DNA from: a virus
DNA length: 64,000 bases
IMG/VR virus record: IMGVR_UViG_3300047510_002037
Location: 20,700 to 84,699 of that record
Strand: one strand, 5' to 3'
The notes below the pieces were generated by a model. It saw only the letters and a program-made list of their open reading frames with translations, did no database searches and was not told the DNA's origin. Positions 2,558-47,067 of the stretch are shown here, piece by piece. A program made the position numbers and the translations under genes. How positions within the stretch are numbered: position 1 is the stretch's first letter; every line of letters starts with the position of its first letter.

Positions 2558-5500
2558 TTAATCTCCTAGTGCTAGAATGAATGGGGTTACATTATTAAAT
2601 AAACTCTTCAGATATGCTCTACCAGAAACTGTTCCACTCGCTTGGTTAATAACAACGCCATCACCAATTCGGAAGTTTCCTGCTTGATCAGTGCTAGTAT
2701 ATGTAGCCTCTCCACCATCTTCCTTAACAACCTCATTTTCTTGTATAGGAACTCCACCAACAGCAGGTCTTGCTGTAAAGATATTTGTTCCAGCACCAAT
2801 GTATTCAAACGAGATTGTGGTTGCGATTTGTAGACTTTGGCGAGCCAAATAGACTGTATCTCCAATTGATACATTATTATTTAAACCTTGAACTGAAGTT
2901 ATAGTTGTGATTCCCGCATTTGGGAAAGTTGCAGCAGAAATCTTATAGTATAGTGGGTCAATCTTACTAACAACTGCAGAACCTGCGGATCCACCACCAG
3001 ACAATGGGGCAGAAACTGTTATAGAAGGTTCTGTTTCATATTGAGTTCCAGAGTTAATTAAAGTAATGTCTGTGATTCTTCCATCCAAAACTGTTGGAAT
3101 TGCTTGTGCAGTAATTCCGTTAGGTCCGGTTGGAGCATCAATAGTTATATCGACATCGTTAGCGTTTTGGTATCCAGAACCACCATTGGTTACAGTAATT
3201 GAATTTAGTGAATAGTATAGTTTTCCAATATAGAAAACCTCACCATCATATGGTCTGTATGTACCAACACCACTTACAGTCAATTCAATATCACCAATAG
3301 AACCAGCTATAGCAACGTTAGCACTCTTTCTATAAATTGATTTAGAATCAACTCCACTAATACCTCTAGATACTAGACCTTTATTTCCAAAAGAGGCATT
3401 AGAGTTTGTTAGGTCGCATTGTCCACCAGACTGAGTTACAATTGCTTCATTGCAGCAAATAGTAAAGATAGAAACTAACTGTGCATATGCTCCATTTGAA
3501 ATAGAAACTCCAATACCATTTTGATTATATTGAGTATATGAGTCAACACTCATCGATCCCTGTACACCAATATCATCTTCATCTCCTGGTTCTGCTGGGA
3601 ATCCATCAATTTTCATTCCAATACTATCTGGAATAAAGTTTGTGCAGTTTCTAATATATGGCCCTTTGAAAATTTGACCAGTTCCTGGTGAGAACGATGG
3701 ATCGTTCTCAATTTCACTACCAGCTCCGTTATTTCCTGGATAAGTTGTTTTTATTCCAGTTGGATTTTGTGCGGATCTAAAGACTGTTAAACCAGATCCA
3801 ACGATTGTAGTTACAATTCCAATGCATGACCTCATAGCAGAAACTACATTATAACATCCAGCTGGACTTTGGTTAGTTCCAACTAGTGGATCAATTTGAA
3901 TACCAAGATCTTTTACTTGAGTATTGAATGTTTGGAATGGTCTAAACTTAAGGATTGATCCCCCACCATAGTATGTGTGTTGTATTTCAGTTCCACCGAG
4001 AGTAACTTCGAAGGTATTAACCCCAACAATTCTTTCTACTGGGAATATTTGTCCATGTGTATTATCTGGGAAAATAGTGGTTGTGATACCAGAATTTACT
4101 GTACCGCCACCAACATAAGTGTGATCTAATGTTGATATACCGACATTTACAGTAAATCTTCCTGATGTGAATAGTTGTGGATATGAATTTAGATTACCGT
4201 TAGTAACAGAAGTTGTTAATATTGAAATTAGATTATCAATGTTGGATTTAACATTAGCACAAGAATTTGGACTTGTATTAAATCCAGTTAGTGGATCTGC
4301 TGTAATTGTTAGATCCTTAAAGTTTAATTGATTTGTAATTGCTAGTTTTGAATAATCTCTAATAGAATTGAATGCAGTAACTGATGGTGCTTCCTCTCCG
4401 ATTAATCCATTTGTTAATGGATCTCCATTAGCATCAAAATACGCTCTTGTCGCTTCTCTAATATACTTGTTGGTTCCAAATCTAAGATCTTTTATAAGAG
4501 CATCGACAACATATGCAATATCCCTTCTGCACTTACTTTCACCACTTAAGAATAAACCATAATTTATTTTAATAGCATTCAGGGTTAGTAAGTTCCCAGA
4601 ACCAATTGGTTCGGTGATAATAGATGTTAATGTATCTAGAGTTGACTGAACATCTGAACAAGCAATTGAACTTGTATTTGCTACGGAAATATTACCATCA
4701 CCATATACTGATGATCCGATGGAAACTCCAGTATCTTTTATTGTAAGTTGATTGGTTATTGCAGACTTCATCAAATCTCTTGCTGCTTGGAATGCTTCAA
4801 TCGAAGCTGATTCCTCTCCAACCAGTCCATTTGATATTGGAGCACCAGATCCATCAAAATACTGTTTAATAAATTCTATTGAATATCTATTCCCTCCAGT
4901 GAATATATCTGTAGAAACAGCATCTACAAAATATCCAAGATCTCTCTTGCATTTTGTTTCAGTTAAAATAACACCAGAGTTTGCTGGATTAGCAATCATA
5001 GTATCCCAAGCAGAAGTTACTATTTCTGCTTTATTTTGTTGGATGAGTCTATAAGCATCCTTATATCTTGAATATTGTGTTGTCTGATTATCATCTGGAA
5101 AATAGAAATCAGAATGGGCAATCGCAATAGATGCTAAAGATTTATCAATAATTTCCAACCTATTACCAGATATTAAATTAGCAGCATCTGCGTATCTGTG
5201 ATCAATTGCTGTTGAAAGTATTGTAAAATCATATCCAAGATTACCACTTGGATATAATGCAGTGGATGGACCTCCTCCACTATTGCATTCAAATACTAAA
5301 TTCTCTAGTCTAACTTTTTCGCCTGGCTCTGCATAAAAACCTATAGCAGTTGTGGATGCAATACCAACAACTCTAATTGTTGATATACCAGTAATTCTGT
5401 CGTATGTTGCAGTAGAAACTCCAAACGTTGGAGTATATAATCTAGTTACCGTTCCCCCTCCAACATAACTATGGGAAATAGTTGATGGTCCAACATTAAC

Positions 5501-7609
5501 ATTAAAACTCGTTCCAGAAAGAACATCTGATACGGTAAAATCATATCCAAGATTACCGCTTGGATATAATGCGGTGGATGGACCTCCACCAGAATCGCAT
5601 TCATAGACTAGATTTTGAAGTCTTACTCTATTTCCGACTTTAAAGTTATTATTTGCTGAGGTTTCTATAGTGGTAATACCACTTATATTATCATATGTTG
5701 CGCTGATAACATTTATTGGTGTTCCTGGGGAACCTTCTGGACACGTAAATGCAAATCCATCTAATTTTACAGAATCATATTTTTGAAGACCATGATTTGG
5801 GACTGTAACTGTAGATAATCCTGTTTTTTGATCATATATTATGTTTGTTGCTGGTATAGTTAATCCAATGGAAACTCCACCCCATGTAGAATTATTAATA
5901 ACGTTTCTAGCAATATTGAAAGAATAATCCAGTGTTTTTATTGTCTGTTCTCTTTCCAGTGGATTTTTTAGAGTATTGAGTGCAAATTCTCCAGTACTCT
6001 CATCAAAATATGTTTTACCAGCCGCAACACATTTAGAATTACCACCTCTAGTAATATCATAACAAACTGCTTTCCAAATATTTCTAATATCCCTAGAGCA
6101 CTTAAATGTATCTAAGTTTATTCCAGTAACTGTTACTATTCCCGCAGTAGATCCAGTTCCTACAGCTGTTGTAACAATACCAGCAAGATATGAAATACTA
6201 TTAGCAACACCTACACACCAACCAGTTCCTCTAACGAACTTATTCCCAGACTGATCATATTCAACTCTTGTTTGAATACGAGTCGGGTCAAATGCTTGAG
6301 TATAAGTTGATTGATAATTTGTATATTTCTCAACAGTTCCGCCAGTACTGTATGTGTGCGGAATAGATGATATTCCAACGTAGACTTTGAATGTATTTAC
6401 GCCAACATATTCTTCTACTTTAAAGAAGTATCCATACTTACCATCTGGGAAAGTATTAGTTGTAATACCAGAACCACCAGGACACGTAAACTTAACTCCA
6501 TTTAGTTTGATGATATCACCAGTTGTTACTCCATGTCCAACTGCAGTAACTGTTGATAATCCAGTTAGATTATCATAGATAAATCCAGTAATATTTGTTG
6601 TTGATCCAGATGCAACACTACCATATGGCTTATTATTGATTACGTATGTTGCAATACCTACGGCATAATTAATTGTATCAACTGTCGCCGTAGAAATTCC
6701 ATATCCGTTTATATCTACTCCCGTAATATGGAGTAAAGCCCCACCAGATGAAAAATATGAAAGTGCTGCTCCAACAGACTTTTCGTTACCTGTCGCTTTT
6801 AAATCATATGCAATGGATTTGAAAATATCTTTAATATCATCCCTACAATCTTGGTCTGTTGTTGGAACTTCAAATACGGGATTTTTATAATCAGTACTAG
6901 TCAGGAATCCAACAGCCTCACCAGCAATAAAATCTAAGTTTGCTTCTAACAATACAGCAGCATCTTGTGCTACGTGAGTTCCAGCATATCCGCTATATCC
7001 ACTTGTTAAGAATCCAACTGCTTCTCTAGCAATAAAATCTGAATTATATCTAATTAATCTAGCAGCATCAAAATATCTGTCTGGAGATACTCCTTCTAAA
7101 GGTCTAAAAGCAATAACAGCAGCACCTTCTGTAGCTGGAGGTCCAACAAAACTTAAGTCGGTAACGTGAACACCATCATTTACATGAAATAAATCTTTAT
7201 TTGAATTTTGTGGTGTTACTAAACAGTTTCTTAATTCTAATCCCTCTACCGATACATTCTTTTTAAGAAGAATTGGGTTATTTTCAATATATTGTCCAGC
7301 ATAAACTTTAATAGTATCAAATGAATTTGCTATTGCTGCAGCAGCTTTAATAGATGCTTTTGCATCTCGTTCATTTAAACCACTATTAGCATCATTTCCA
7401 TTTTTAGTTACAAATATTGTTTTACCTAATGATCCACCAGCACCAACTGCAATAACTCTGGTAGCAATTCCAACTCCACCAGTGTCTTGCTTCAAGAAGA
7501 CTTGACCATCAAATGCATTAACAGCTAATTCACCAATTAGAAGTTGAGCATTTGTTGGAACTTTGCCTTCTACTGAAGATCTTTTTAACCTAATTATTGG
7601 ATCAGACAT
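2558..7609 (-). CDS. Large tail fibre/spike protein: beta-helix scaffold with nested phycobiliprotein-like and beta-sandwich inserts
   Basis: N-terminal IRLKRS...GELAVN..DG fibre-attachment motif; pectin-lyase-like start (IFVTKNGND...DTIKVYAGQY); four helical CxRD-type repeats; late promoter upstream. Confidence 0.75.
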   Translation of the reverse strand: MSDPIIRLKRSSVEGKVPTNAQLLIGELAVNAFDGQVFLKQDTGGVGIATRVIAVGAGGSLGKTIFVTKNGNDANSGLNERDAKASIKAAAAIANSFDTIKVYAGQYIENNPILLKKNVSVEGLELRNCLVTPQNSNKDLFHVNDGVHVTDLSFVGPPATEGAAVIAFRPLEGVSPDRYFDAARLIRYNSDFIAREAVGFLTSGYSGYAGTHVAQDAAVLLEANLDFIAGEAVGFLTSTDYKNPVFEVPTTDQDCRDDIKDIFKSIAYDLKATGNEKSVGAALSYFSSGGALLHITGVDINGYGISTATVDTINYAVGIATYVINNKPYGSVASGSTTNITGFIYDNLTGLSTVTAVGHGVTTGDIIKLNGVKFTCPGGSGITTNTFPDGKYGYFFKVEEYVGVNTFKVYVGISSIPHTYSTGGTVEKYTNYQSTYTQAFDPTRIQTRVEYDQSGNKFVRGTGWCVGVANSISYLAGIVTTAVGTGSTAGIVTVTGINLDTFKCSRDIRNIWKAVCYDITRGGNSKCVAAGKTYFDESTGEFALNTLKNPLEREQTIKTLDYSFNIARNVINNSTWGGVSIGLTIPATNIIYDQKTGLSTVTVPNHGLQKYDSVKLDGFAFTCPEGSPGTPINVISATYDNISGITTIETSANNNFKVGNRVRLQNLVYECDSGGGPSTALYPSGNLGYDFTVSDVLSGTSFNVNVGPSTISHSYVGGGTVTRLYTPTFGVSTATYDRITGISTIRVVGIASTTAIGFYAEPGEKVRLENLVFECNSGGGPSTALYPSGNLGYDFTILSTAIDHRYADAANLISGNRLEIIDKSLASIAIAHSDFYFPDDNQTTQYSRYKDAYRLIQQNKAEIVTSAWDTMIANPANSGVILTETKCKRDLGYFVDAVSTDIFTGGNRYSIEFIKQYFDGSGAPISNGLVGEESASIEAFQAARDLMKSAITNQLTIKDTGVSIGSSVYGDGNISVANTSSIACSDVQSTLDTLTSIITEPIGSGNLLTLNAIKINYGLFLSGESKCRRDIAYVVDALIKDLRFGTNKYIREATRAYFDANGDPLTNGLIGEEAPSVTAFNSIRDYSKLAITNQLNFKDLTITADPLTGFNTSPNSCANVKSNIDNLISILTTSVTNGNLNSYPQLFTSGRFTVNVGISTLDHTYVGGGTVNSGITTTIFPDNTHGQIFPVERIVGVNTFEVTLGGTEIQHTYYGGGSILKFRPFQTFNTQVKDLGIQIDPLVGTNQSPAGCYNVVSAMRSCIGIVTTIVGSGLTVFRSAQNPTGIKTTYPGNNGAGSEIENDPSFSPGTGQIFKGPYIRNCTNFIPDSIGMKIDGFPAEPGDEDDIGVQGSMSVDSYTQYNQNGIGVSISNGAYAQLVSIFTICCNEAIVTQSGGQCDLTNSNASFGNKGLVSRGISGVDSKSIYRKSANVAIAGSIGDIELTVSGVGTYRPYDGEVFYIGKLYYSLNSITVTNGGSGYQNANDVDITIDAPTGPNGITAQAIPTVLDGRITDITLINSGTQYETEPSITVSAPLSGGGSAGSAVVSKIDPLYYKISAATFPNAGITTITSVQGLNNNVSIGDTVYLARQSLQIATTISFEYIGAGTNIFTARPAVGGVPIQENEVVKEDGGEATYTSTDQAGNFRIGDGVVINQASGTVSGRAYLKSLFNNVTPFILALGD

Positions 7610-34404: not shown

Positions 34405-37400
34405 TTATGATAGGTAATTTATAGATTTTAGAGCATTAGTTCTTCTTACTATTGGGGAAGTTGAAATTCCCAATAATCCATTGTCTTTATATATTGAATA
34501 TTCTTCTGGATTTGGTCTAATTAAATTAGATACCTTACCCCAAGTATATTCTCCAAAAAATTCTCTTGATAAGAACTCATTAATTACTAATCCATTTAGA
34601 TCTTCTATAGGAGCAATAACTTTTATCCTATCAACAACTATTAAAGTTCCTTCTTCGGTAACAGTTACGGAAGAACCACTTCCTATAGCAAATGATGCAT
34701 ATCTAGCAGTATCGGAAATTATCTCAGAAACATTTACTTGATATGGTTCAAGATCAATACCAGCAACTTGATATACATTATCAATGAATTGATTTCCTGT
34801 AACCAATGCATTCCCACTAATATCTAAGGAAGTAACTCCAAAACCAATATTAGTTGAGTTGATTACAAAATAATCACCAATTTGAATAGTACTTTGATCA
34901 TATATCTCACCAACAACACTAGCATCTCTAAGTGGAGAATTTTCATCAATGAATAATTCAAATACCAGTGCAGTTGATCCCACCCCTATAGATGTTGTAC
35001 CAATTCCACTAATAAATCCAAAATCTCCAGAATATTCTACTTGATATGCAACTTCACTCTTAGATAGTGGTGGTGATATTAAAACTAATGGTGGATTATT
35101 ATCATCATATCCACTACCACCATCATTAATTGATATAAAATCGACCTTACCATCAACAATTACAGCTGTTGCCGAAGCGGTATTTATACCACTCTTTGGA
35201 GAATGTATTGATACTGTTGGTATGGTTGTATATCCAAATCCTTTATCTTGTATATTAATACTAGTAACTATTCCAGAAGTAACTGATGCTAAAGCATATG
35301 CAGATTTAGTATCATCTTGTGTTACTATATCTACAACATTAGTATATGTTTCTGGCGCATTTTCTTTTTTATCGTCAAAGAAAGTTTTTAAACTTTCTAC
35401 ATAAACAAAAGTGCTACCAATACTTATATCAGAAATAATATTTGTAAATGGATTTATTTGAGCTTCATATAAGTCTCTTGATTTGGGAATAATTTGACCA
35501 TCTACGATAAGATCATTCTTTTGTCTACACCAGTTAACTGGTCTCTCTAAGAATGGATTCTGAATTATACCCTCTCCACCATATGGGAATGTCTCCACAG
35601 AATCTGTAGCTGTAATATCTTTAACAGACCGTTCGGATTGATTTTCTTCAATGAAATCACTATGCAATCTTAATCTATCCCCAGGTTTTACTGTTTCTAG
35701 AATATCTACATCCCTAACATCAATCGACCCCGTTCCTCTATAGAACAGTATCTTCGCAGTGTTTCCTGGTTTTGGTGGTTCTGGGAAACGTATAATACTT
35801 CCTCCCTTAAATATGTAACCAATTCCAGGAACTTGTAATATATCATTGATGAATACCAATAGAGTTGACTGAACATCAATCAGAGAACCAGTTTTTGATT
35901 TAATAGACTTTTGTATTCCATTGATTTTTATTGGGAATCTTGTTCTAAATCCATTAAATAGAGGACTTATATCATCCAAAACTGCAATATCACCTATTGT
36001 CCATCCAGTAAATTCGTCAGTATCTGTATCTGCTACAGTTACTTCAAAATTTTCAAAATTCTGTGTTGTTGGTAATGATAAAGTTGGATTTGAGTATGGA
36101 GACTGTATCGTTGGTGCATATGCTGTTCCAAGTCCAATAATTGTAGTTATTATACCAACATAATTTCCTATGGTATACCAAACATCCGAGCAACAATTTT
36201 CGTCATATAATGAAGGACTGCATGATTCATCAAAATCAATGGATAAATCTTTAATCTGAGAAATAGATGATATACCAGATTGATATGATACTGGAACCGT
36301 TACGTTGTTTATGATATATTGTGATATATTGGTAATATAATTATAACCTGCTATTGTTTCAGTCTTTTCACCATCAATATATGATGTACCACCAGCTCCG
36401 ATGTAGTATGCAAATCCAGCTTGAACGCTATAATAGTTACCACCAAAGGCTAAGTCATTTGAAATTGCATCTACAACATAACCAATATCTCTCTTACAAA
36501 TACTTTCATCATAATCAGTGCTGGTCAAAATTCCTGGATAGGTATTTGTGATGAATCCTACCACTTCATTCTTAATAAATTCTTTGTTTACTGATAGTAG
36601 ATTTGCACCATCAAGTAATCTACCTCTATACTCTCTTGGTATACCAGTAGTTCCACCAACAGCAACTGTTAATATATTATTGATTTCATATCCAAAACCT
36701 GGATCTATTATTTCAAAATCAATAACACTAGAACCTTGTCCTACAACAACATTAACTCTAGCATTTTGACCCGTTGTTTTTCCAATTGAAGTTGTGGAAT
36801 ATTCTAAATCAATATTTGAGTATGATAATGGGTCATCAAAGACGACTTCTGGTGGATTTGATGATGTGTATCCAGATCCTGGATTTGTAATTGCTACACT
36901 TACAATTCTTCCATAACTTATTGACGCAATACCAATCTTATTATAACCATCAGAATAGTTAGTTGAAGTTCTTACTCCAACATTTACAGTTTGTATTCCA
37001 GAACGATAACCAGATCCAACATTGGTGATATAAATTGATTGAATAGTTCCCGAAGCAGATACAACAGCAGTACCAGCAGCTGCTACAAGAGTTTGATATC
37101 CAAATCCACCTACAGATCCAACTGCAGTAATTTTTCCGGATACTGGTAGTCCTGTTACTGAGATGTCCAAACCATCAGAATAAGAATTACCATCAAAATA
37201 AATTGTAGTTGAATCATTTTCTTCACCAAGATAATAGTTTCCAGTAACACTAACCACACCGGTGCGTATAGGTGATTGGAATATATCTTTAACAGTAATC
37301 AGTGCATTACTTTGTTCTATTCCAGTTATATTTTCACCATCTACAGTCAATGTAAACGCTGTTGTTATTCCATTAAATTGATCTTGTATTCCATCAAAAA

Positions 37401-40400
37401 CATAATTTCTTGAATATGGTTCTTCTGTCCCATCAACTATTCCAGATCTCATAAATGTTCTTCCGCTAAAAGTGGAATTTGTTGTAATTCCTGTCCAATC
37501 TCTAGAGTCTGGTCTATTTTCAGGAGATCCTAATGGATACTTACCATAAGGAGCCGATGCAAAGTTAATTACATTATCTACAATATTATAGTTTCCGACA
37601 ACTTTTATTATTAAATCACCGGCAGAATGATTTTGTAATGATGTTCCAAGCCATGGTCTATTAACGTATATTTGAGTGGAAGTTGTTCCATATCCAACTA
37701 TAGCAACTCTCATTAACTCATCATTTATTTTTATGAAATCGCCAGATTTGAAAAATTCTACGTTATTTGATACGTTAATAATATCATCTGTAGTAAGAAT
37801 ATTGTACGCAAGGGTTGTTGTTGTTGCAGTAGATACAATTGGAGATTGTATCATATTGTCAATAGAGATTAATGCCTTTGCATTTTGCTTTTCGGCAGTA
37901 ATATAATGCTCAGAACCAAAACCAACAGAAGTTATTGTTAAAACTTCCGGTACTAACTTTAATGCATTTTGAGCAGAGGATGCAAATTTAACATTAAGAT
38001 CAGTTTCTTTTACAATATAAAGATCTTCTGGTAATTTATCAGTCAATCCAATACCAGAAATAGTAGTAGTTGCTATTCCTATGGGCTCATTAAAGATCTC
38101 ATATGAATATTTTACTTTTTCTCCAGTAACAAAGAAATGTTGTGGAAGTTGTACTAAATTATTTGCAACGTCAATTATGTCTGAAGATTCTCCATTAAAT
38201 TTCTTTTGGAATATTGGATTCCCTTTGTGGAATAACTCAAAAGATTTTCTAATTGCACTCTCAGTTCCTTCATATTCGCCATATCCAGTAGATACTCGTG
38301 CATTATTCAAATCTATCTCATTATTCAAGTTAAATGTATCAACTATTCCTATAGTGTTTACATATACCCTAACCTCACAGTCTATTTCAGAATCTGCAGT
38401 GAAATAAATTTCTGTTGTAGATCCATTTAGAAAAGAAGTAATAATACCAATTTCACCATTAGTGGTTAATACTCCAAATTCAGAGTTATATGCTGAATTA
38501 TCATCAGATGCAACTACACATTCTGAAATTTGATATCTTTCATTAGTTAAGTCTTCAATACTTACAATTAAATATGCTCCATTATAATCATAGAATCCAG
38601 CATCAAACTCCGCAATCTTAGTTGGTGAAGTGCTAGAAGTTGTAGATATACCAACATATTCGGAATTTAACTGAGAGGTGTTTAATGTTATTGATCCCTC
38701 TTCAATAAATCCTGATGCAGAGCTTGCTATAGACACTTGTAACGTGTTTACATCAGCATCTAACAATATATTTGGTATCAAATCGACTACTAAGTTTCCT
38801 GAACTTATATAAGCATTATATGTCCCAATACCCGAAACAGATTCTTCTGAGAATGATTCGGTTGTAATTTGACCATAATCTATAATCTCAACATTAGTTC
38901 CATCATGAATAACAGTAATTTCGTCGAATTCAAATATATTTGACGAATCTTCAATCTGAACTAGAATTTTAGTTGCTCTGTAATCTAGAGGTATTGATGC
39001 TATTGTTGTGGTTATACCTGCATTTAATGGAGTAAAAGTACTATTAACCTTAACAATATTACCAATCGAGGTGTTTCCTACTCCAGAAATGTAATCTTTA
39101 ACGTCATAACTTACAAAACTAAGATCATAATTATTAACTCTAAACTTGACTGGATAGAAAAGTAATCTAGCTTCATCGCCAAAAATATCAAAATCGAAAG
39201 ATCCTAATATTGGACCAGTTTCAACTCTACCATATTGGTTTATGTATGTTTGACCTCCATCATGAATAAAAGTAACAAGGTATACTTGTCTTTCTGAAGT
39301 AAATCTTTTATCCCTAGCGAAAATTAAGAACTTTCTTGATCTTATCTGTTCTAGTTTAAATGTTGTTACAACACTGTATGGATTTGGTCTTGGTCTATCA
39401 TTAAAATATTCACTAACATCATCAATTACTAATACTCTATTTCCAATAGATTCCTCATAATCCTGAAGATCTCTACTATTAAATATCATTCCATTAGATA
39501 TTAATTTTGCTCCGATTGTTTCTGTTTCATCAATAGCAATATCGAAATCATATACACAATCTAAATCTACTACTTCTGATATGAAAGCAATTGATAAGAA
39601 ATCGCCACTGTCTTGAGATGTTGATATTCCTGAGAAAGATAAATCAGAGGTTTCAATTACTAAATCACTAAACTTTTTAAATCCAGATAGATGGTTTAAT
39701 GAATTAACAGTAGTGTCCCAATTTTGGAGTGGAATTCTTGATTTAATTGAATATGAGAAATTCTGATAATAATCTCCATCTTGAATTTTTTGGAAAGAAT
39801 TATTTAAAAATCCAGTTTCATCTTTCCATCCAGAGACTACAACAGAGGTTGCATCAACATTATATACCAGTTCATTGGTTGCTATCTCAGTAATTTCTGC
39901 AACTGATCCACTCTTTGATCCTACAACACGTTCTCCTAGTAAATATGAATCTATAGTAGTAACTTTCAATAATTCATTAATTTTATCCCATCTAGAAACT
40001 CTTCCTACAACCTTACTCGTCAAACCAGTTATCTCTTCACCTTCAATAAAATCATTCTGCTTTATTGTTGCTGTAAAAATTGGAAAATGCTTTTCTAAAA
40101 CAACTATTCCACTGGAAGTTACCAAATCATATTGGCCTAAAATTTCATCACTAGAAACATAGTCTTGCATACTATAAGTTATAGTTGCATTTGAACCTCC
40201 AATATTTGGATCAATACTCAGGATCTTGAATAAATTATAGTTAAATTCTGATGAATTAAATCCTCTACCCAAACTTCCTAAAGTACTTGTTTTACATCCT
40301 TCTATCAGGATGTTATCATTTACTTGGAATGGAAAATCATTTAAAGAGCTAAAACTAGTCCTAAAAGTAACCGTTACAATTTTAGTACTAAAGTTAAAAA

Positions 40401-43400
40401 CTATATTTTTGATAGAAAAACCATTAGAGTTATTAATAGGAATGAATTTTGGAGTATTATTTGATAAGCTATTTGTATTTTTGATGATAGTTACGCCAGA
40501 TTCTGTATTAGATAATATTAAATCAGTGAAAACTTCATTTGTTGCAGAATCTTTTACTATCAAATCCGGAGGAACAACATATCCTTTTCCATTTACAGAT
40601 AATTTTATTTGATCAAATGAATACTTTTGATTCAGAACTAATATATCTGGCAGTTTCGCTGTGGGTCTTAATGTTAGGTCTGATGGATAGTCAAATCCAA
40701 TATCTTGTATTTTAAATCTATTATCCTTTCCTATACTATCACTTTTTGGTTTTATTTTCGCATCTTTTCCTGTTGAAGAGAAAACTTTAGCGAGTCCAAC
40801 CAATCTTTGATAATTGTCTCCACCAGATTCCGTTACTATTTCTTGAATTTTTCCAGTAGTTGTTCTTGAACTGGTCACATAAGAAATAGATGCTGTTGTT
40901 TTATCATAGAAACTCTTTTCTGGAGTTATACCCATCTCCATAGAAAAGAATGTTGCTCCTGCAGAAACAACATTTGACCTTTGCGAATATCCACTAAGAG
41001 AAAAAACTAAACTATTTTTGAAATCAACATTTAAATTATCTGAGAATATTTGTCTCTTTGTGAGTGGTATATTTGTATTTTTTAATGGTACTAGATTGTA
41101 GTATATGGTATATGGTGTTTTATCTGTTACAACTAACTCAGCATATGCGTTCTCGCTGATCCCAATAGATCCATTATATGTTATCTGAAAATTTGTTTCT
41201 CCATCAGAAAGGTATTCATGTTTAAATTGATCGTCTTTATATAATTTAAATTCAAATGCAGAAAATCTTGATACTCCATCAATATACGACAAAGATGGGT
41301 CGTTTAAAAGAAATCTAACTTTCGAATTTCTTACTATTTCTATTGATGGATTTATTTTAAATAATTTACCTGAAGAAGTAGCAGAAGTTATGTTTATTAC
41401 GTTAATATCATCTTTATCTACAATTATTGAATTGTAATATGAATTTGCAAGTTGAATTGTGTCTTTAGTAATGTATATAACATAATATATCTCATCATTA
41501 ACTAATCCACCAAGAGCATTGTTATCATCAGAAACATATATTACCTTATCTCCAGCAGCAAATCCATGGTTTTGTATACTAATAGTATTTTTATCTAAAT
41601 TTATATCCGAGACATTGAATGATTTTGGATTTACCACCAATCTTCTATGTTTATCATTATATCTAATATCAATTTCTGTTGTTTCTACTGAAGTTAAACT
41701 TAATGATACAGAATCTCCAATAGTTAATCCATTATCCTCATCAGTATATGCTGTAAGTATATTATGATAAAGCTCGCTATTAATTATATTTTTATAAGTA
41801 GTTTTAAAGCTATGCTTATATCCAGTACCAACACCAACGTAAAATAATGTATCGGCACCAATATCAGTTGTTAGTCCAACAAATGAAGAATCAGTTGATA
41901 TTCCCAATTTAACAGTAGATAATCCAATAATGTTATTATCAATTTTCGCAACGAAAAGTGCTCCATCAATTTCATTTGATGCATATTGTAAAGATGTAGT
42001 TATTCCATTAATATAAACGTTTATATCAGATCCATCATATGAGTTGTATATAACTTTATCACCAGTCTCTAAACCATGTTCTGGAATATAAATTGTTTTG
42101 GAAGATATAGTGATCTGTGTTAGTCCAATGCCAGGATTGACTAATGTTGCAGTATATCCAATTCCGGATATTGTACCCAAACCAACTGAATCCTGAGGGA
42201 CAAAATATATCTCTCTATTTAAACTTACATTATTAAGAGTGCTTCTTATTTGTGAATTTTTAACATAAAATTTTCTAGGAATTTCAATGAGTTTGCTATT
42301 AGCAGAATGAGCTGTACCAACAGTTTGATCATATTCTCTTTCAACCAATATTCTCAAATCTCTAGACTGGCGATTATCCAATCTTAATACTCTAATCTTT
42401 TCGGAATTGATTTGAAATATATCATTCTCACATAGATACGGAAATCTCAATTTTCCCGATACATTGAAATATGTTACTATTCCAGTAACTGAAGACGGTC
42501 CAACATTTGAATTTAATGTTATTTCTCTTGCATCTATTGTTAAAGATTCAAATGTATTAACAATTGCTTCGGATTGAGTCGAAAATCCAACCAATCTTAC
42601 CTTATCTCTATTTTGTAACCCATGTGGAGTTGTGCAGAATCCAATTAGTCCATTAACTTCTGGTGATTGAGATACTTCAACATTACTAAAGTATTTTAGG
42701 GTATTTTGTACGCGATTAACATTCTTACCAACTAATTCAGAAACTACAGCTGAAGCTCCAACTCCACCAGTAAACGTATTATCGAAGAGTACCTGATCTC
42801 CCACTCTATAGTCGGTTCCGGGAGATAATATATCTACACCATCAATTCTTCCTTTGCTAGAAGCTTCAATTATAGAATAATTTTTTTCTAATTTAGTTGG
42901 ATCTAATAAGTATTCATAACCACTTTCTTGCTTATTTAAATTATAAGGAGTTATATTTCTACGCCACTTTGTAGCATTAATTCCATATTCATCCTGATTT
43001 GCTGTCCTTTCTGAATTAAAAGATATGTACTTGCTGAAATATGAATCTCCAATAATATATGGAAAAGCTGGTAGCTTACTCAATGCAAATGGACCTTCTT
43101 TTTGTAAGGTTGCTTCTAATGTTAAAAAGTATGCATAGGTTCCATTTGGAAATTCTGGAGTTATGCAAAATCTTCCATTTTTTTCATCTAAATCTCCTCT
43201 CCCAGTATATGAAAAATCCTCGATAAAAAATCCAAGAGGATAATTTGGTCTACTTCCAGTATCAATTTTTTCATAACCAGAAACCATTTGTCTAATTCTT
43301 CCTCCAAATGGAGTATCATATCCATATGGACCATATATTGGATTACCATCATAAGCCCATCCTAAAATTGGTGAGTGAAATGGAGTTCTAGTATCATTTT

Positions 43401-46400
43401 GTAGGTCAGTTTGATATTTTAATACTCCTTCTTCGAATTTTTCCCCATAAACCATATTTCTAAGTTTTCTTGGGGCATAAATGTGAACATATTGCAGTCC
43501 ATATCTTTCATTCTTTGAACGCGAAACAAATAAATCATCATTTGTTATTTTTTCTTTTAATAATAAGCTCTCAACTAAATTAATATTCCATGGTTTAATC
43601 TTAAATTCAAATTGAGCACCCTGCGCTGGAGAACTTATCGTTATAGCAGTAGAGTTGCTGTACCCAAATCCTGAATTAATTACTATTACTCTTTTTAATT
43701 TTCCATCGGATATGATTGGAGTAAGAATAGCTCCAGATCCCTTTGCTAATGGAAAGAAAGTAGGATCAAGTATTTTTAAATCTGGAGTTGAATAATAGTT
43801 TTTACCCTCACTTAGTACAATTACGTCTATTATTTTTCCATCATATATTACTGGTTTCAATAAAGCACCTTCACCAGTTAGTATTTCATATGAAGGTTGT
43901 TTATTGAAATTTATAATTTCCTCAGATCCATAAGAACTTCCAGATGAAGTAATATGAGCACCTTTTAGATTGCCTCTAAAGACTGGATTTAATTTACACT
44001 TACATTCATCTTCAAAAATAGAACTTACACCCAAAACACCATCAATATTAATAACCAATGGGGGATACTTAAACTTGTGGGTTCCTGTAGGGGATGATGA
44101 AATTCTTACATACTCACTTCTAAGAAATAATTCTTTTGGATTATTAGAGTTCTCTACTTTTTCGGATAATCTAAAATTATCTTCATCTACAACTGATACG
44201 TAATAATTTTTAGTAGTAGATAATCCAGAAATTGGAGATTGTGTATATTCATATACTATTTCATCTCCACTTCTAAATCTATGATTTAGTGAAGTGATTG
44301 TATATTCTGAAGTATTGATTCCAGATGATGGTACTTCAATTTCATTATTATTAAGTGTTGATCCCCTATCGTAAATTTTTATAGAATTTACGATAGATTT
44401 ATAATTTGTAGATGTTATTCTATGATTGCCTGTGGATAATGAGGTTATGTTTATTGGATTTATTTTTGAGAAAGCTTCAGATTCTGTTAAATGCAACGAA
44501 ACTTTTGTTTTTGAAATTACGGAAATATAATAAAGTGATCCAGACACTAATCCACCTATTTCAGGTTGCCCGTCTGAATAGTATCCAACTAATTCTCCTT
44601 CTCTAAATTTATGAGACTTTCTAAAGTCAATTGTATCTTCTGCTAAATTGATAGCAGAAGATGCTGAGAATATTTCAGAGTGCTCTATATTGAGCATTTC
44701 TGGGAAAACAATGGGTGGTGTTTTCATATTTCCACCAGAAATCGTTATTTTTGGTGTAATAATATAATCAAATCCGGTTTCTAATATATCAATTCTTTCT
44801 AAAAATCCTTCTACTATTGGATAGCAAGAAAAACCAGATCCAATGGGATCTGATACTTTTACTACTGGTGGATTTAATACATCATAATTACTTCCTTCGG
44901 CAATAGAAGTTACCTCTTCTATTGGACCATAGTATATTTTATCCTGTGTTTTATAAGTTTGAATTTCTGTTCCATTTTTAAATATACCAATTCTATCATT
45001 TGGAAAAATATTTTCTACAGTTTCTGCTTTTCTTGGTATAGATATTTTTCTAATTAATTTTTGAGGCTCAACCTGAATAGGGAGAAGAGTGTGATCAACA
45101 TTAGATAATGGTGTAATTTTTGCATAATCCACCACACCTTCTAATTTTACATAGATTTTCTTGTCTAGATTAGATCTACTTCTAGATAATTTAAAGGTAT
45201 TATTATCTACTTTATAGACAAAATATGTATTCTTTATTAAGTTGATATCATTATTGTCTGAAAAGGAATTATAAACTACAGATTCTCCAGTGAGAAATCC
45301 ATGTTTTGGTGCAAATATCAATTCACTATTAAAGTTTCCCCTTAAAACAACTGTTCTTAAATTATTTGAAAGATCCTCATTAAAATAATTTGGTAGCGAA
45401 TGTGAGGTTACATAAGTGTTTTTTGAATAGTCTTGATATGTATTTTGAACATTAGCATTATAATCCGTTCCCTTAAACTTTGTTAGTTTCTTTCTAACAT
45501 AATATGCGTCTATGATCGGTCTATCATTTACTATTCTCAATGATTTTCCTGGTATTGAACCAACACTAACTTCAAATTCTTTATCAATAATCTCTCTACT
45601 ACCGTCAAAATTTATAATTTGAAAATTTAGTTCTACCAAATCACCTGTGTTTATATTACAATCATCAAATGTTATTATATTATATTTTAAATTTCCTTCA
45701 TCTATCGTTTGAAAAACTCTATTCGATATTGGAACATTAAAAATCCAAGAATTCGCCCTAACATCGTTAGATTCAATTCCTAAAGTTTTTATTGAAACAT
45801 AATCATTTGGTTCTGCGTATGGAGTATCAGTCAAAACATCAAGACTGGATAAAACTCCATTAACCTTCATTCTTACTTGATTGCCTTCATCATCATAAGA
45901 ATAAACATATTGATTTGCTGATACCCAAGTTTTTGCTTCTATGCTTCTATCAACTCCGGTACATCCTAAAAATTGATTCGTAGTTTTTGATGTATAATCA
46001 ACAATAAGCCACTCATTTTCCAGATCAATTCCCTCAAATTTAAATAGTAGTTGACCAGAATTTGCAAATGGGAGTGTAGAATCTACATCTAATACTGTTG
46101 CGCCAACAGAAACAGAGTTAATTAGTTGTGTTTGTGGGTGGATACTAAAAGATCCAAAAACAGATCCAGTTACACCAATATCTCTTGAATATCCATAATC
46201 AAGAGACAATCTATAATAATTTGTATTATTTCTTTTAAATTCTTCGATATTTGTTACAGTTCCATAAGCTTTTGGAACTTCGCCATCTTGATCTTGATAT
46301 AGAGTTCTATTTAAAGAATCCCATGGATTACCATCTATTTCATCAACAACTAAGTCTAATGTTACTCTAAAATCAGATGCGGACGGTTTAAATAAAAATT

Positions 46401-47067
46401 CTTTTGGACGAATAACATTAATGTCTTCACCGAAAAGAGCTTTAAATAAAATTTTAAAAGAATCATCAGTTCCTTTAGAACTATAAAAATCTTTAGATTG
46501 TTTTATAAACAATGCTTGATTTAATTCAGAATATAACTCAGTATCTTCAAGACCTGGAAGAAAGTGAGATTTAGCTTTTAATAAAAATTCTTGTAAAAGA
46601 AGGTTATATAAATTTATTACATCGGATCCAGATTCATGAAAAGATATAAAAGTTTTTTCGAATATTAAAGAATCTTTTTTAGATGGGTCTATATATGAAA
46701 TATTTCCACTAAATCCTCTAGTGCATTCTTCAAATGTGGTCTCTGTCTTTGTTTTATAATAGATAATTTCATCATCAATTCTTATTAATCCATTATCTTG
46801 AGGAAATCCTGCAGTAGATTCTACTGCGATAGTGAAATCGAATAAATCTAATTCTTCAGTTAATACTGTAGATTCTTTAGAATTTACTAAATTATCTAAT
46901 TTTTTATATGCATCTATATTCTGAAGTATATCCGCAGGATTTCCGGGTGATTCTAAGTAGTTGTAATATTCTTTTAAAAATTCTATTAGTAAAGGACTTT
47001 CATCTCTAACAAAAGATGGAACCTGTGATTGGACAAGTGAACTGAGTTTTACTGTATTTTTCTTCAT
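34405..47067 (-). CDS. g7: Baseplate wedge initiator gp7 (giant, 4220 aa)
   Basis: Lies between g6 and g8; QVPSFVR...FLKEYY, DFYSSKGT..SFKILF, HSPILGWAYDGNPIYGPYG, QDGDYYQNFSYSIKS. Confidence 0.85.
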   Translation of the reverse strand: MKKNTVKLSSLVQSQVPSFVRDESPLLIEFLKEYYNYLESPGNPADILQNIDAYKKLDNLVNSKESTVLTEELDLFDFTIAVESTAGFPQDNGLIRIDDEIIYYKTKTETTFEECTRGFSGNISYIDPSKKDSLIFEKTFISFHESGSDVINLYNLLLQEFLLKAKSHFLPGLEDTELYSELNQALFIKQSKDFYSSKGTDDSFKILFKALFGEDINVIRPKEFLFKPSASDFRVTLDLVVDEIDGNPWDSLNRTLYQDQDGEVPKAYGTVTNIEEFKRNNTNYYRLSLDYGYSRDIGVTGSVFGSFSIHPQTQLINSVSVGATVLDVDSTLPFANSGQLLFKFEGIDLENEWLIVDYTSKTTNQFLGCTGVDRSIEAKTWVSANQYVYSYDDEGNQVRMKVNGVLSSLDVLTDTPYAEPNDYVSIKTLGIESNDVRANSWIFNVPISNRVFQTIDEGNLKYNIITFDDCNINTGDLVELNFQIINFDGSREIIDKEFEVSVGSIPGKSLRIVNDRPIIDAYYVRKKLTKFKGTDYNANVQNTYQDYSKNTYVTSHSLPNYFNEDLSNNLRTVVLRGNFNSELIFAPKHGFLTGESVVYNSFSDNNDINLIKNTYFVYKVDNNTFKLSRSRSNLDKKIYVKLEGVVDYAKITPLSNVDHTLLPIQVEPQKLIRKISIPRKAETVENIFPNDRIGIFKNGTEIQTYKTQDKIYYGPIEEVTSIAEGSNYDVLNPPVVKVSDPIGSGFSCYPIVEGFLERIDILETGFDYIITPKITISGGNMKTPPIVFPEMLNIEHSEIFSASSAINLAEDTIDFRKSHKFREGELVGYYSDGQPEIGGLVSGSLYYISVISKTKVSLHLTESEAFSKINPINITSLSTGNHRITSTNYKSIVNSIKIYDRGSTLNNNEIEVPSSGINTSEYTITSLNHRFRSGDEIVYEYTQSPISGLSTTKNYYVSVVDEDNFRLSEKVENSNNPKELFLRSEYVRISSSPTGTHKFKYPPLVINIDGVLGVSSIFEDECKCKLNPVFRGNLKGAHITSSGSSYGSEEIINFNKQPSYEILTGEGALLKPVIYDGKIIDVIVLSEGKNYYSTPDLKILDPTFFPLAKGSGAILTPIISDGKLKRVIVINSGFGYSNSTAITISSPAQGAQFEFKIKPWNINLVESLLLKEKITNDDLFVSRSKNERYGLQYVHIYAPRKLRNMVYGEKFEEGVLKYQTDLQNDTRTPFHSPILGWAYDGNPIYGPYGYDTPFGGRIRQMVSGYEKIDTGSRPNYPLGFFIEDFSYTGRGDLDEKNGRFCITPEFPNGTYAYFLTLEATLQKEGPFALSKLPAFPYIIGDSYFSKYISFNSERTANQDEYGINATKWRRNITPYNLNKQESGYEYLLDPTKLEKNYSIIEASSKGRIDGVDILSPGTDYRVGDQVLFDNTFTGGVGASAVVSELVGKNVNRVQNTLKYFSNVEVSQSPEVNGLIGFCTTPHGLQNRDKVRLVGFSTQSEAIVNTFESLTIDAREITLNSNVGPSSVTGIVTYFNVSGKLRFPYLCENDIFQINSEKIRVLRLDNRQSRDLRILVEREYDQTVGTAHSANSKLIEIPRKFYVKNSQIRSTLNNVSLNREIYFVPQDSVGLGTISGIGYTATLVNPGIGLTQITISSKTIYIPEHGLETGDKVIYNSYDGSDINVYINGITTSLQYASNEIDGALFVAKIDNNIIGLSTVKLGISTDSSFVGLTTDIGADTLFYVGVGTGYKHSFKTTYKNIINSELYHNILTAYTDEDNGLTIGDSVSLSLTSVETTEIDIRYNDKHRRLVVNPKSFNVSDINLDKNTISIQNHGFAAGDKVIYVSDDNNALGGLVNDEIYYVIYITKDTIQLANSYYNSIIVDKDDINVINITSATSSGKLFKINPSIEIVRNSKVRFLLNDPSLSYIDGVSRFSAFEFKLYKDDQFKHEYLSDGETNFQITYNGSIGISENAYAELVVTDKTPYTIYYNLVPLKNTNIPLTKRQIFSDNLNVDFKNSLVFSLSGYSQRSNVVSAGATFFSMEMGITPEKSFYDKTTASISYVTSSRTTTGKIQEIVTESGGDNYQRLVGLAKVFSSTGKDAKIKPKSDSIGKDNRFKIQDIGFDYPSDLTLRPTAKLPDILVLNQKYSFDQIKLSVNGKGYVVPPDLIVKDSATNEVFTDLILSNTESGVTIIKNTNSLSNNTPKFIPINNSNGFSIKNIVFNFSTKIVTVTFRTSFSSLNDFPFQVNDNILIEGCKTSTLGSLGRGFNSSEFNYNLFKILSIDPNIGGSNATITYSMQDYVSSDEILGQYDLVTSSGIVVLEKHFPIFTATIKQNDFIEGEEITGLTSKVVGRVSRWDKINELLKVTTIDSYLLGERVVGSKSGSVAEITEIATNELVYNVDATSVVVSGWKDETGFLNNSFQKIQDGDYYQNFSYSIKSRIPLQNWDTTVNSLNHLSGFKKFSDLVIETSDLSFSGISTSQDSGDFLSIAFISEVVDLDCVYDFDIAIDETETIGAKLISNGMIFNSRDLQDYEESIGNRVLVIDDVSEYFNDRPRPNPYSVVTTFKLEQIRSRKFLIFARDKRFTSERQVYLVTFIHDGGQTYINQYGRVETGPILGSFDFDIFGDEARLLFYPVKFRVNNYDLSFVSYDVKDYISGVGNTSIGNIVKVNSTFTPLNAGITTTIASIPLDYRATKILVQIEDSSNIFEFDEITVIHDGTNVEIIDYGQITTESFSEESVSGIGTYNAYISSGNLVVDLIPNILLDADVNTLQVSIASSASGFIEEGSITLNTSQLNSEYVGISTTSSTSPTKIAEFDAGFYDYNGAYLIVSIEDLTNERYQISECVVASDDNSAYNSEFGVLTTNGEIGIITSFLNGSTTEIYFTADSEIDCEVRVYVNTIGIVDTFNLNNEIDLNNARVSTGYGEYEGTESAIRKSFELFHKGNPIFQKKFNGESSDIIDVANNLVQLPQHFFVTGEKVKYSYEIFNEPIGIATTTISGIGLTDKLPEDLYIVKETDLNVKFASSAQNALKLVPEVLTITSVGFGSEHYITAEKQNAKALISIDNMIQSPIVSTATTTTLAYNILTTDDIINVSNNVEFFKSGDFIKINDELMRVAIVGYGTTSTQIYVNRPWLGTSLQNHSAGDLIIKVVGNYNIVDNVINFASAPYGKYPLGSPENRPDSRDWTGITTNSTFSGRTFMRSGIVDGTEEPYSRNYVFDGIQDQFNGITTAFTLTVDGENITGIEQSNALITVKDIFQSPIRTGVVSVTGNYYLGEENDSTTIYFDGNSYSDGLDISVTGLPVSGKITAVGSVGGFGYQTLVAAAGTAVVSASGTIQSIYITNVGSGYRSGIQTVNVGVRTSTNYSDGYNKIGIASISYGRIVSVAITNPGSGYTSSNPPEVVFDDPLSYSNIDLEYSTTSIGKTTGQNARVNVVVGQGSSVIDFEIIDPGFGYEINNILTVAVGGTTGIPREYRGRLLDGANLLSVNKEFIKNEVVGFITNTYPGILTSTDYDESICKRDIGYVVDAISNDLAFGGNYYSVQAGFAYYIGAGGTSYIDGEKTETIAGYNYITNISQYIINNVTVPVSYQSGISSISQIKDLSIDFDESCSPSLYDENCCSDVWYTIGNYVGIITTIIGLGTAYAPTIQSPYSNPTLSLPTTQNFENFEVTVADTDTDEFTGWTIGDIAVLDDISPLFNGFRTRFPIKINGIQKSIKSKTGSLIDVQSTLLVFINDILQVPGIGYIFKGGSIIRFPEPPKPGNTAKILFYRGTGSIDVRDVDILETVKPGDRLRLHSDFIEENQSERSVKDITATDSVETFPYGGEGIIQNPFLERPVNWCRQKNDLIVDGQIIPKSRDLYEAQINPFTNIISDISIGSTFVYVESLKTFFDDKKENAPETYTNVVDIVTQDDTKSAYALASVTSGIVTSINIQDKGFGYTTIPTVSIHSPKSGINTASATAVIVDGKVDFISINDGGSGYDDNNPPLVLISPPLSKSEVAYQVEYSGDFGFISGIGTTSIGVGSTALVFELFIDENSPLRDASVVGEIYDQSTIQIGDYFVINSTNIGFGVTSLDISGNALVTGNQFIDNVYQVAGIDLEPYQVNVSEIISDTARYASFAIGSGSSVTVTEEGTLIVVDRIKVIAPIEDLNGLVINEFLSREFFGEYTWGKVSNLIRPNPEEYSIYKDNGLLGISTSPIVRRTNALKSINYLS

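Follow-up and report, generated by a model that had tools for sequence, protein, structure and literature searches.

The stretch of viral DNA considered here (the window; 64,000 nucleotides, positions 20,700 to 84,699 of IMG/VR record IMGVR_UViG_3300047510_002037) encodes on its minus strand a giant protein of 4220 aa, P0001 (34405..47067, from the ORF list and its translation). It matches PHROG 2885, "baseplate wedge subunit," with 3091 bits over residues 4-3369, while residues 1-223 correspond to the Pfam domain Baseplate_wedge (PF23786; 28.3 bits, with a cut-off of 27; E = 1.5e-6) and a YHYH domain occupies residues 1226-1320. Based on these matches, we identify the product as a gp7-type baseplate wedge protein of a marine-type cyanophage, belonging to the same family as the T4 gp7 baseplate wedge and its cyanophage homologues. 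The closest relative is DSL-LC03.

Aligning gp7 homologues, as had been proposed in a preliminary description of this DNA, reveals a clean presence and absence of an insert. In a MAFFT alignment of gp7 segments, the proteins of S-B43 and P-TIM68 fuse the stretch GGTTGI(Q/P)TD straight to TS.T..EF.LTV; P0001 is alignable with them on both flanks and carries 190 aa between these (aa 3478-3667; 36067..36636, minus strand). The insert is a discrete helical island in the C-terminal third of gp7. Translation reproduces the peptide that had been quoted for aa 3483-3645 (36133-36621), with Cys3524 and Cys3626 where they had been placed; the location of the island stands, but its bounds had been drawn slightly too narrowly. 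Most of it is taken up by a core with a predicted phycobiliprotein fold (aa 3478-3646; 36130..36636, minus strand), delineated using AlphaFold2, VIA-align, Foldseek, and hhalign, in which equivalents of helices A, B, E, F, G, and H can be recognized and the X-Y hairpin is absent. Within this core lie two candidate pigment-attachment sites, Cys3524-Lys-Arg-Asp (site 1, C-x-R-D; 36487..36498, minus strand) and Cys3626, predicted to cap the N-terminus of the last helix (site 2; 36190..36192, minus strand), and a G-H loop (P0002 residues 125-163; 36193..36309, minus strand) for which AlphaFold2 predicts no helix and in which its confidence is mostly moderate to low (block pLDDT 57-79). The same loop is the place of large insertions in the copies of this module found in a second protein, P0003.

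A template-free AlphaFold2 model, computed on an alignment of 38 module copies (A1) that also forms the base of our family profile, has a pLDDT of 79.5 and a pTM of 0.80 and contains seven helices (P0002 residues 16-31, 33-47, 49-53, 59-79, 83-93, 106-124, and 165-184), in agreement with the helical island first noticed in the sequence. Structure prediction followed by a Foldseek search, the check suggested at that time, returned top rows consisting entirely of phycobiliproteins (E = 7e-3). With VIA-align, the best 50 entries were likewise all phycobiliproteins, with 140-160 of about 170 residues covered, and phycoerythrin beta aligned with a Z-score of 16.2 and an rmsd of 2.6 over 159 residues. 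The model therefore suggests that the module adopts a globin-like fold with helices A, B, E, F, G, and H. Real phycobiliprotein subunits use an N-terminal X-Y helical hairpin to form the alpha-beta monomer. This element is missing here: the first helix of the model starts at residue 16, its tightest structural alignments begin at chain residues 31-33, and the hhalign alignment begins at phycobiliprotein residue 36. We accordingly file the module as a relative within the superfamily rather than as a canonical phycobiliprotein subunit.

At the level of sequence, searches with the gp7 copy taken alone gave zero Pfam matches at E<=10, only noise in a phmmer search of PDB sequences (SusD-like, E = 0.012), no megablast match of the gp7 region to phages, and no usable match in the ESM Atlas. 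The family as a whole behaves differently. Multi-copy relatives match PF00502 with 45.9 and 35.8 bits, above the cut-off of 22.2, and 25 of the 38 single module copies also match it (best E = 8.3e-6). Of 119 PDB sequences matched by the A1 profile, the best 60 are all phycobiliproteins, led by phycoerythrin alpha (5aqd_A, E = 1.2e-4) and CpcA (8iml_A, E = 2.7e-4), with alignments running from helices A/B to E and including the K-C-x-R-D stretch. Comparing A1, with the gp7 copy as master, against eight true Synechococcus phycobiliproteins, hhalign gave a probability of 95.5% and an E-value of 1.4e-8 over 105 columns. Since the Pfam matches of relatives, the profile search of PDB, hhalign, and the structure search agree and place the same cysteine on Cys82/84, the island is genuinely, if distantly, related to the light-harvesting phycobiliproteins of the host. 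The resemblance at the family level is far beyond chance; identity outside the Cys-Arg-Asp triad is only about 12-17%. The initial comparison with allophycocyanin alpha pointed to the right family, but the best matches are phycoerythrin and phycocyanin subunits, beta by fold and alpha by sequence. We classify the island as a member of the phycobiliprotein (globin-like) superfamily that is specific to phages, consists of a single domain, and has been inserted into gp7 as a unit that folds on its own.

The site 1 residues that would hold a pigment are strongly conserved. In both hmmsearch against PDB and hhalign, Cys3524-Lys-Arg-Asp aligns residue for residue with the K-C-x-R-D of phycoerythrin alpha, CpcA, and CpeB. 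The cysteine and aspartate of site 1 are invariant in A1, and when about 1,900 copies drawn from giant relatives are compared, conservation of the cysteine, arginine, and aspartate is 97.3%, 96.2%, and 99.4%, respectively; a subfamily shows C-x-D-D in place of C-x-R-D. Cys3626 is also invariant in A1, but in the wider family only about 26% of the copies retain it. The distance from Cys3626 to the end of the last helix is 19-20 residues, matching that in RpcB and CpeB of Synechococcus MAG G002. VIA-align maps model residue 183 to chain residue 177 or 172, so that residue 164 (Cys3626) would fall at 158 or 153, a correspondence obtained by offset from aligned C-termini and not read residue by residue. 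It would place Cys3626 at the beta-subunit Cys153/158 position, the type of site (beta Cys153/155) on which the T-type bilin lyases CpcT and CpeT act, and make the module a candidate substrate for them. The family additionally has near-invariant residues of its own, namely an Asp at +14 (99%), a Tyr (99%), and an Asp at +9 (80%), and an Asp where phycobiliproteins have the invariant Arg91. A disulfide between the two invariant cysteines was considered and rejected, as the fold implies that the sites lie far apart and relatives such as P0071 have one cysteine per repeat. The eight repeats of P0071 hold exactly eight cysteines, all in C.RD, so an intradomain disulfide is not what preserves the site 1 cysteine. 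This pattern of conservation suggests that a ligand site of the module family is under selection.

Several parallels and differences emerge on comparing the module with known phycobiliproteins. With the beta subunits (CpeB, CpcB/RpcB, and cryptophyte beta chains; PF00502) it has in common the globin-like helices A-H (Z-scores of 14-16 over 140-160 residues), the Cys-x-Arg-Asp on helix E, and the second cysteine ahead of the end of the last helix. By sequence, the family profile matches the alpha subunits (CpeA and CpcA/RpcA) best; like them, most members of the wider module family possess a single cysteine, to which the copies in the window add the beta-type second cysteine. Unlike either kind of subunit, the module is embedded in a virion protein of 4220 aa, lacks the hairpin and hence alpha-beta pairing, has diverged to low identity with its own invariant Asp and Tyr, and is only a candidate for carrying a bilin. 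An architectural parallel is offered by the core-membrane linker ApcE (LCM), where a phycobiliprotein domain sits inside a large multidomain protein and is split by a loop insertion, as in copies of P0003; the ApcE-type 1045-aa ORF of Synechococcus MAG G002 matches PF00502 in two pieces. ApcE reportedly attaches its bilin without a lyase. The ApcE domain differs from the module in belonging to the phycobilisome of the cell, where it has kept its pairing with ApcB, and in existing as one copy that is neither mobile nor part of a virion.

The second virion protein of the window, P0003 (1683 aa; 2558..7609, minus strand), was found to hold four nested module copies using tblastn, hmmsearch, a profile search of the window's record, and translations. 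All pieces lie on the minus strand: copy a is in three (a_N, 6983-7084; a_E-G, 5825-6115; a_H, 3788-3922), copy b in two (6623-6970 and 6128-6289), and copy c in two (c_N, 5102-5206; c_E-H, 4175-4546), whereas copy d (4571-5098) is uninterrupted and nested inside another copy. Every copy retains the site 1 cysteine (in C.RD or C.DD) and the site 2 cysteine. The gp7 copy had been described as a fifth and uninterrupted one; it is indeed the fifth, but copy d is uninterrupted too, though nested. Elsewhere, the module forms arrays of up to 34 copies, with 20-34 copies in the giant relatives, and the gp7-type giant proteins of P-SSM4, Syn9, Syn33, S-TIM4, and S-RIM8 each contain at least three stretches that match. 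The proposal that this is a mobile module placed in two different virion proteins is supported by its absence from the gp7 site of S-B43 and P-TIM68, its presence at a different site in the gp7 of DSL-LC03, and its nesting in P0003.

A search of 50,697 phage records found the module exclusively in cyanophages or marine single-cell viruses (331 of 331 and 335 of 335 matching records), and among cultured phages it is restricted to cyanophages. Samples of 400 Bacteroidota and 400 Cyanobacteriota genomes each yielded none beyond the centre genome, which was known beforehand to hold a module-bearing phage contig. One uncultured non-T4 phage, a 155-kb contig binned with a Saprospiraceae MAG, has a module with C.RD and a second cysteine; it has no cpeT and no psbA, its primase and portal are without cyanophage relatives, Bacteroidota phages are among the primase matches, and a search of viral contigs with its module copy recovered no related loci. 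The preliminary description named two outcomes that would refute it, the lack of a profile or structural match to phycobiliproteins and a CxRD kept equally well in phages whose hosts make no bilins. Neither was observed: both kinds of match were obtained, and in the phage records the module occurred only in cyanophages. The non-T4 contig, from a phage of possibly heterotrophic host, keeps the motif.

Bilin-related genes offer a further connection. The lyase-like cpeT is found in 19 of 30 module-bearing records, short fragments included, and in 14 of 18 module-bearing isolates, being absent from the module-bearing DSL-LC03, S-B43, S-T4, and ACG-2014f, while none of the 14 isolates with cpeT lacks the module. 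In the Synechococcus MAG phage contig, S-PM2, S-WAM2, S-CAM1, and Syn1, it lies 1-5 kb upstream of a fibre-type gene. The 84.7-kb record of the window has no psbA, cpeT, bilin reductase, or heme oxygenase, which is uninformative as the record is only about 40% complete. Across 20 isolates (both, module only, cpeT only, neither: 14/4/0/2), the association is not significant and only suggestive (one-sided Fisher test, about 0.08, uncorrected for phylogeny), and we have set it aside as strong evidence. A 2010 review called the role of phage cpeT and bilin-synthesis genes unclear (PMC2984593). Light is needed for some cyanophages to adsorb, and this need does not depend on photosynthesis by the host: P-HM2 and S-PM2 need light for adsorption and P-SSM2 adsorbs in the dark (PMC6628666). 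Among these three phages with an adsorption phenotype, P-HM2 and S-PM2 are module-positive and P-SSM2 is module-negative.

Taking these findings together, we propose as the best explanation that the island is a bilin-binding module of the virion baseplate that has retained its bilin pocket, a reading to which we would give even odds. On synthesis of gp7 in the infected cyanobacterium, the module would take up phycoerythrobilin or phycocyanobilin made by the host or the phage; the bilin would occupy the homologue of the Cys82/84 pocket, held by a thioether to Cys3524, and a second one might be attached at Cys3626. Attachment could be autocatalytic, as in ApcE, or could depend on lyases of the host or phage (CpeT). 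A baseplate pigmented in this manner could make adsorption or baseplate triggering light-responsive. In favour of this reading are the homology, the conserved ligand site, the confinement to cyanophages, the cpeT genes, and the three adsorption phenotypes; against it speak the lack of a Pfam match for the gp7 copy alone, the low identity outside the triad, the family's own invariant residues and its replacement of Arg91, the missing bilin genes of the window's record, the module-bearing phages without cpeT, the non-significant association, the non-T4 contig, and the scarcity of the site 2 cysteine in the wider family.

The most serious competitor, which we hold to be less probable, is that a host phycobiliprotein gene captured long ago was exapted as a rigid helical spacer or decoration of fibres and baseplates with no chromophore, C-x-R-D and the other invariant residues being needed for the fold or for module-module contacts. 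The arrangement of copies in fibre-like proteins as long tandem or nested arrays, reminiscent of structural repeats, the loss of the X-Y helices, and invariant residues foreign to phycobiliproteins would all suit such a role, as would the lack of cpeT in several module-bearing phages and in the window's fragment and the occurrence of the module in a phage whose host is possibly heterotrophic. We also know of no report of coloured virions, and a literature search found no report of a chromophore on any cyanophage virion protein. However, a mere spacer does not readily account for the conservation of the bilin-site triad: in about 1,900 diverged copies its three residues, together with another Asp and a Tyr, vary least in the whole family, being kept at 96-99%. 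Nor does it readily account for a lone unpaired cysteine per repeat without an obvious structural role, or for cpeT adjoining fibre-type genes in many phages.

Conservation of a pocket could also reflect a change of ligand, the old site now binding another tetrapyrrole, a metal (via Cys, Asp, Asp, and Tyr), or a host surface molecule as part of a receptor-binding or sensing unit. The new Asp+9, Asp+14, and Tyr near the cysteine in sequence, the replacement of Arg91, and the C-x-D-D subfamily are in line with this idea, which we nevertheless regard as improbable, given that the triad Arg and Asp are kept at 96-99%, that no search points to an alternative ligand, and that the cyanophage restriction and neighbouring cpeT fit a bilin better. 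As for a chance similarity of helical bundles, with the island unrelated to phycobiliproteins, the failure of the gp7 copy alone to match Pfam or PDB sequences, the modest Foldseek E-value, and the high Z-scores that helical models can reach by chance speak for it; against this, four independent lines of evidence (Pfam on relatives, profile against PDB, hhalign, and structure search) agree, leaving it barely credible.

To our knowledge, phycobiliproteins have been described only as subunits of the photosynthetic antennae of cyanobacteria, red algae, and cryptophytes, and a literature search found no prior description of the module, which does not prove that none exists. A diverged, pairing-incompetent phycobiliprotein with pigment-attachment residues was unexpected in the baseplate and fibres of cyanophages. 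Because those residues are kept, whether the virus particle carries pigment can now be tested, and the gp7 copy, which stands alone and has no other domain within it, is a convenient first construct for chromophorylation. A more speculative extension of the bilin-binding reading, to which we assign a low probability, is that cyanomyovirus particles with bilins covalently bound in baseplate and fibre modules possess a light sensor of their own that gates adsorption or triggering. If true, this would explain the light-dependent adsorption of S-PM2 and P-HM1/P-HM2, and it would place the substrate of phage cpeT, and in part that of the bilin-synthesis genes which phages carry, in the virion and not in the host antenna. 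The discovery of the module makes two old puzzles, the phage cpeT and bilin genes (PMC2984593) and light-only adsorption (PMC6628666), testable at the bench.

The island belongs to a gp7-type baseplate wedge protein of 4220 residues, encoded on the minus strand at window positions 34405 to 47067 (PHROG 2885, 3091 bits; Pfam Baseplate_wedge at residues 1 to 223), in an IMG/VR virus record of 84.7 kb that is ~40% complete; the G+C content of the window is 34.7%. Translation of this ORF bears out the coordinates and the two cysteines of the preliminary description, placing the peptide that it quoted at residues 3483 to 3645 (window 36133 to 36621, minus strand), with Cys3524 and Cys3626 within it. 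The same protein contains a YHYH domain (Pfam PF14240, E 6.7e-22) at residues 1226 to 1320 (window 43108 to 43392) and, apart from it, a match to PHROG 460, "head closure Hc2," at residues 3919 to 3999.

On its own, the gp7 copy retrieves nothing from Pfam or from PDB sequences, and it matches five PHROGs of giant cyanophage fiber and structural proteins. An exhaustive HMMER search recovered 997 representative proteins matching the module at E<=1e-3, many of them giants with 10 to 34 tandem copies of 130 to 190 residues each. Three metagenomic proteins (P0004, P0005, and P0006; 4799 to 6382 residues) consist almost wholly of 30 to 34 tandem copies, mostly with one cysteine apiece. Two multicopy relatives score 45.9 and 35.8 bits against PF00502 (Phycobilisome protein; Pfam gathering cutoff, 22.2), always at profile positions 61 to 141, which include the chromophore cysteine. 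We aligned 38 copies, namely, the gp7 copy as the first member, one from the window's second module-bearing protein, and 36 from IMG/VR loci; 25 of the 38 match PF00502 (best E 8.3e-6). Against all PDB sequences, the profile of this alignment yields 119 matches, the best 60 of which are all phycobiliproteins, headed by PE alpha (E 1.2e-4) and then CpcA, CpcB, and ApcF, and it sets the K-C-x-R-D of the phage family over the K-C-x-R-D of the pigment proteins. Comparison by hhalign with eight genuine phycobiliproteins encoded by a Synechococcus MAG gave a probability of 95.5% (E 1.4e-8; 105 columns), with Cys3524 over Cys82. A seven-helix model of the island, predicted by AlphaFold2 without templates (pLDDT 79.5; pTM 0.80), has only phycobiliproteins in the top rows of a Foldseek search (TM 0.56 to 0.66), and VIA-align superimposes it on phycoerythrin beta with a Z of 16.2 (159 residues aligned; rmsd 2.6), 50 of 50 entries being phycobiliproteins and rank 50 still reaching a Z of 14.4. 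Given these sequence and structure matches, chance resemblance is very unlikely, and the likeness to phycobiliproteins initially drawn by eye stands, the structure prediction proposed as a check agreeing with it.

Helices A to H are common to the module and phycobiliprotein subunits, as are the C-x-R-D triad, a conserved Asn in helix A/B, Gly100, and, in the consensus, Tyr95. Cys3626 directly precedes the last helix, whose end lies 19 to 20 residues further on; the same spacing separates RpcB beta Cys153 and the equivalent CpeB Cys from their C termini. In VIA structural alignments, model residue 183 maps to chain residue 177 or 172, so that, by offset rather than residue by residue, Cys3626 would fall on beta Cys158 or Cys153. 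Unlike real subunits, the module lacks the X-Y hairpin, which makes the alpha-beta monomer in phycobiliproteins; further, Arg91 is replaced, and a near-invariant Asp and Tyr (99% each) are the family's own. Hence, it is a diverged member of the phycobiliprotein superfamily and not a phycobiliprotein subunit. No prior description of phycobiliprotein-like domains in phage virion proteins was found in the literature searched.

The proposal that this is a mobile module placed in two virion proteins is supported by site comparison in gp7 and by nested copies in the second protein. A search with a 602-residue gp7 segment that has the island at its center retrieved 440 cyanophage records. In the suggested alignment of gp7 homologs, the flanks of S-B43 and P-TIM68 join directly, with no module in the aligned segments, where the window's gp7 has a 190-residue insert (residues 3478 to 3667), and gp7 of DSL-LC03 has a 58%-identical copy at another site, upstream. 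The second protein, of 1683 residues (window 2558 to 7609, minus strand), contains four copies, a to d, at 3788 to 7084, nested like Russian dolls: copies b and d lie inside the B-E loops of copies a and c, respectively, and the c/d pair, with beta-rich inserts, inside the G-H loop of copy a. Their N-terminal helices, cores, and last helices are interleaved, beta-rich inserts occupy B-E and G-H loops, and both cysteines are kept in each copy. The gp7 copy had been singled out as a fifth, uninterrupted one; it alone is neither split nor nested, but copy d is also contiguous.

Among the ~1,900 copies that the top relatives supply, the best-kept positions are those of the triad around Cys3524 (Cys, 97.3%; Arg, 96.2%; Asp, 99.4%), along with the family's own Asp and Tyr. 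In antenna proteins, the Arg of C-x-R-D pairs with a bilin propionate; one subfamily of the 38-copy alignment has C-x-D-D instead, with Asp in place of this Arg (e.g., DCLDD and the window's DCRDD at 6623 to 6970). An intradomain disulfide as the reason for retention of the Cys is ruled out by P0071, a relative with eight repeats and exactly eight cysteines, one per repeat and each in C.RD. The counterpart of Cys3626 is invariant in the alignment (gp7 and short-fiber type, embracing the window's five copies) and occurs in only ~26% of the wider family, counted where the column is covered. Taking into account that the triad is strongly kept where all else typical of antenna subunits is lost, and that a gene for a CpeT-type bilin lyase (cpeT) neighbors the module gene in relatives, we give about an even chance to bilin binding by the module at Cys3524 and perhaps also at Cys3626. 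The main rival, an apo structural module, is rated as somewhat less likely.

As regards bilin binding, the window's own record, a 40% fragment, yielded neither cpeT nor genes for a bilin reductase or a heme oxygenase. The cpeT gene is present in 19 of 30 domain-bearing records, fragments of 30 to 70 kb among them, and a full-length version lies 1 to 5 kb upstream of a module-bearing fiber-type gene in the phage contig of the Synechococcus MAG and in S-PM2, S-WAM2, S-CAM1, and Syn1. Among 20 complete isolates of different genera, 14 have both domain and cpeT; four have the domain without cpeT (S-B43, S-T4, ACG-2014f, and DSL-LC03, the last being the closest relative of the window); two have neither (P-SSM2 and P-TIM68); and none has cpeT without the domain. 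This association is suggestive only (one-sided Fisher ~0.08, uncorrected for relatedness). A short, divergent CpeT-like ORF (148 to 224 residues; PF06206 as two half-matches, above the cutoff) is distinct from the full-length cpeT adjoining the fiber-type genes of S-PM2, Syn1, S-CAM1, and S-WAM2. It lies at 16642 to 17064 in P-SSM4 (NC_006884.2), with similar ORFs at 13 to 18 kb in Syn33, S-TIM4, S-RIM8, S-SSM5, and Syn9; P-SSM4 holds this ORF, although a 2010 review, according to which it is not clear what phages gain from their bilin genes, lists it as without cpeT (PMC2984593).

With two query sequences, tblastn against a set of 50,697 phage records matched 331 and 335 of them, every one from a Synechococcus or Prochlorococcus phage, a "Cyanophage," or a marine single-cell virus; in BFVD, each named match is to a Synechococcus phage or to uncultured Caudovirales. 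When 185,579 species genomes were scanned by motif, two contigs with the module emerged: a cyanophage contig in the Synechococcus MAG, with psbA and cpeT, and CAYUZA010000001.1 (155,240 bp), in a MAG labeled Saprospiraceae. Profiles run against 400 genomes each of Bacteroidota and Cyanobacteriota gave no match beyond the two center genomes, which hold phage contigs; hence, the module is phage-borne and not cellular. The Saprospiraceae-labeled contig, which looks complete and has further giant ORFs of 1700 and 4410 residues, is a non-T4 phage with terminase, portal, major head protein, and a primase for which no cyanophage relatives were found. In its 2096-residue tail fiber, three module copies retain C-A-R-D as well as the second Cys, and neither cpeT nor psbA was found in the MAG. 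In the search among phages of nonphototrophic hosts that the preliminary description proposed, this contig is the sole observation that could become a refutation.

The homology, fold, mobility, and cyanophage restriction of the module are shown by these comparisons. Matching stretches number five in P-HM2 and twelve in S-PM2, with no copies in P-SSM2; in this comparison of three phages only, P-HM2 fails to adsorb in darkness, S-PM2 adsorbs in a light-dependent manner that does not act via host photosynthesis, and P-SSM2 adsorbs in the dark (PMC6628666). As a further and quite unlikely step beyond bilin binding, the module might serve the virion in light sensing.
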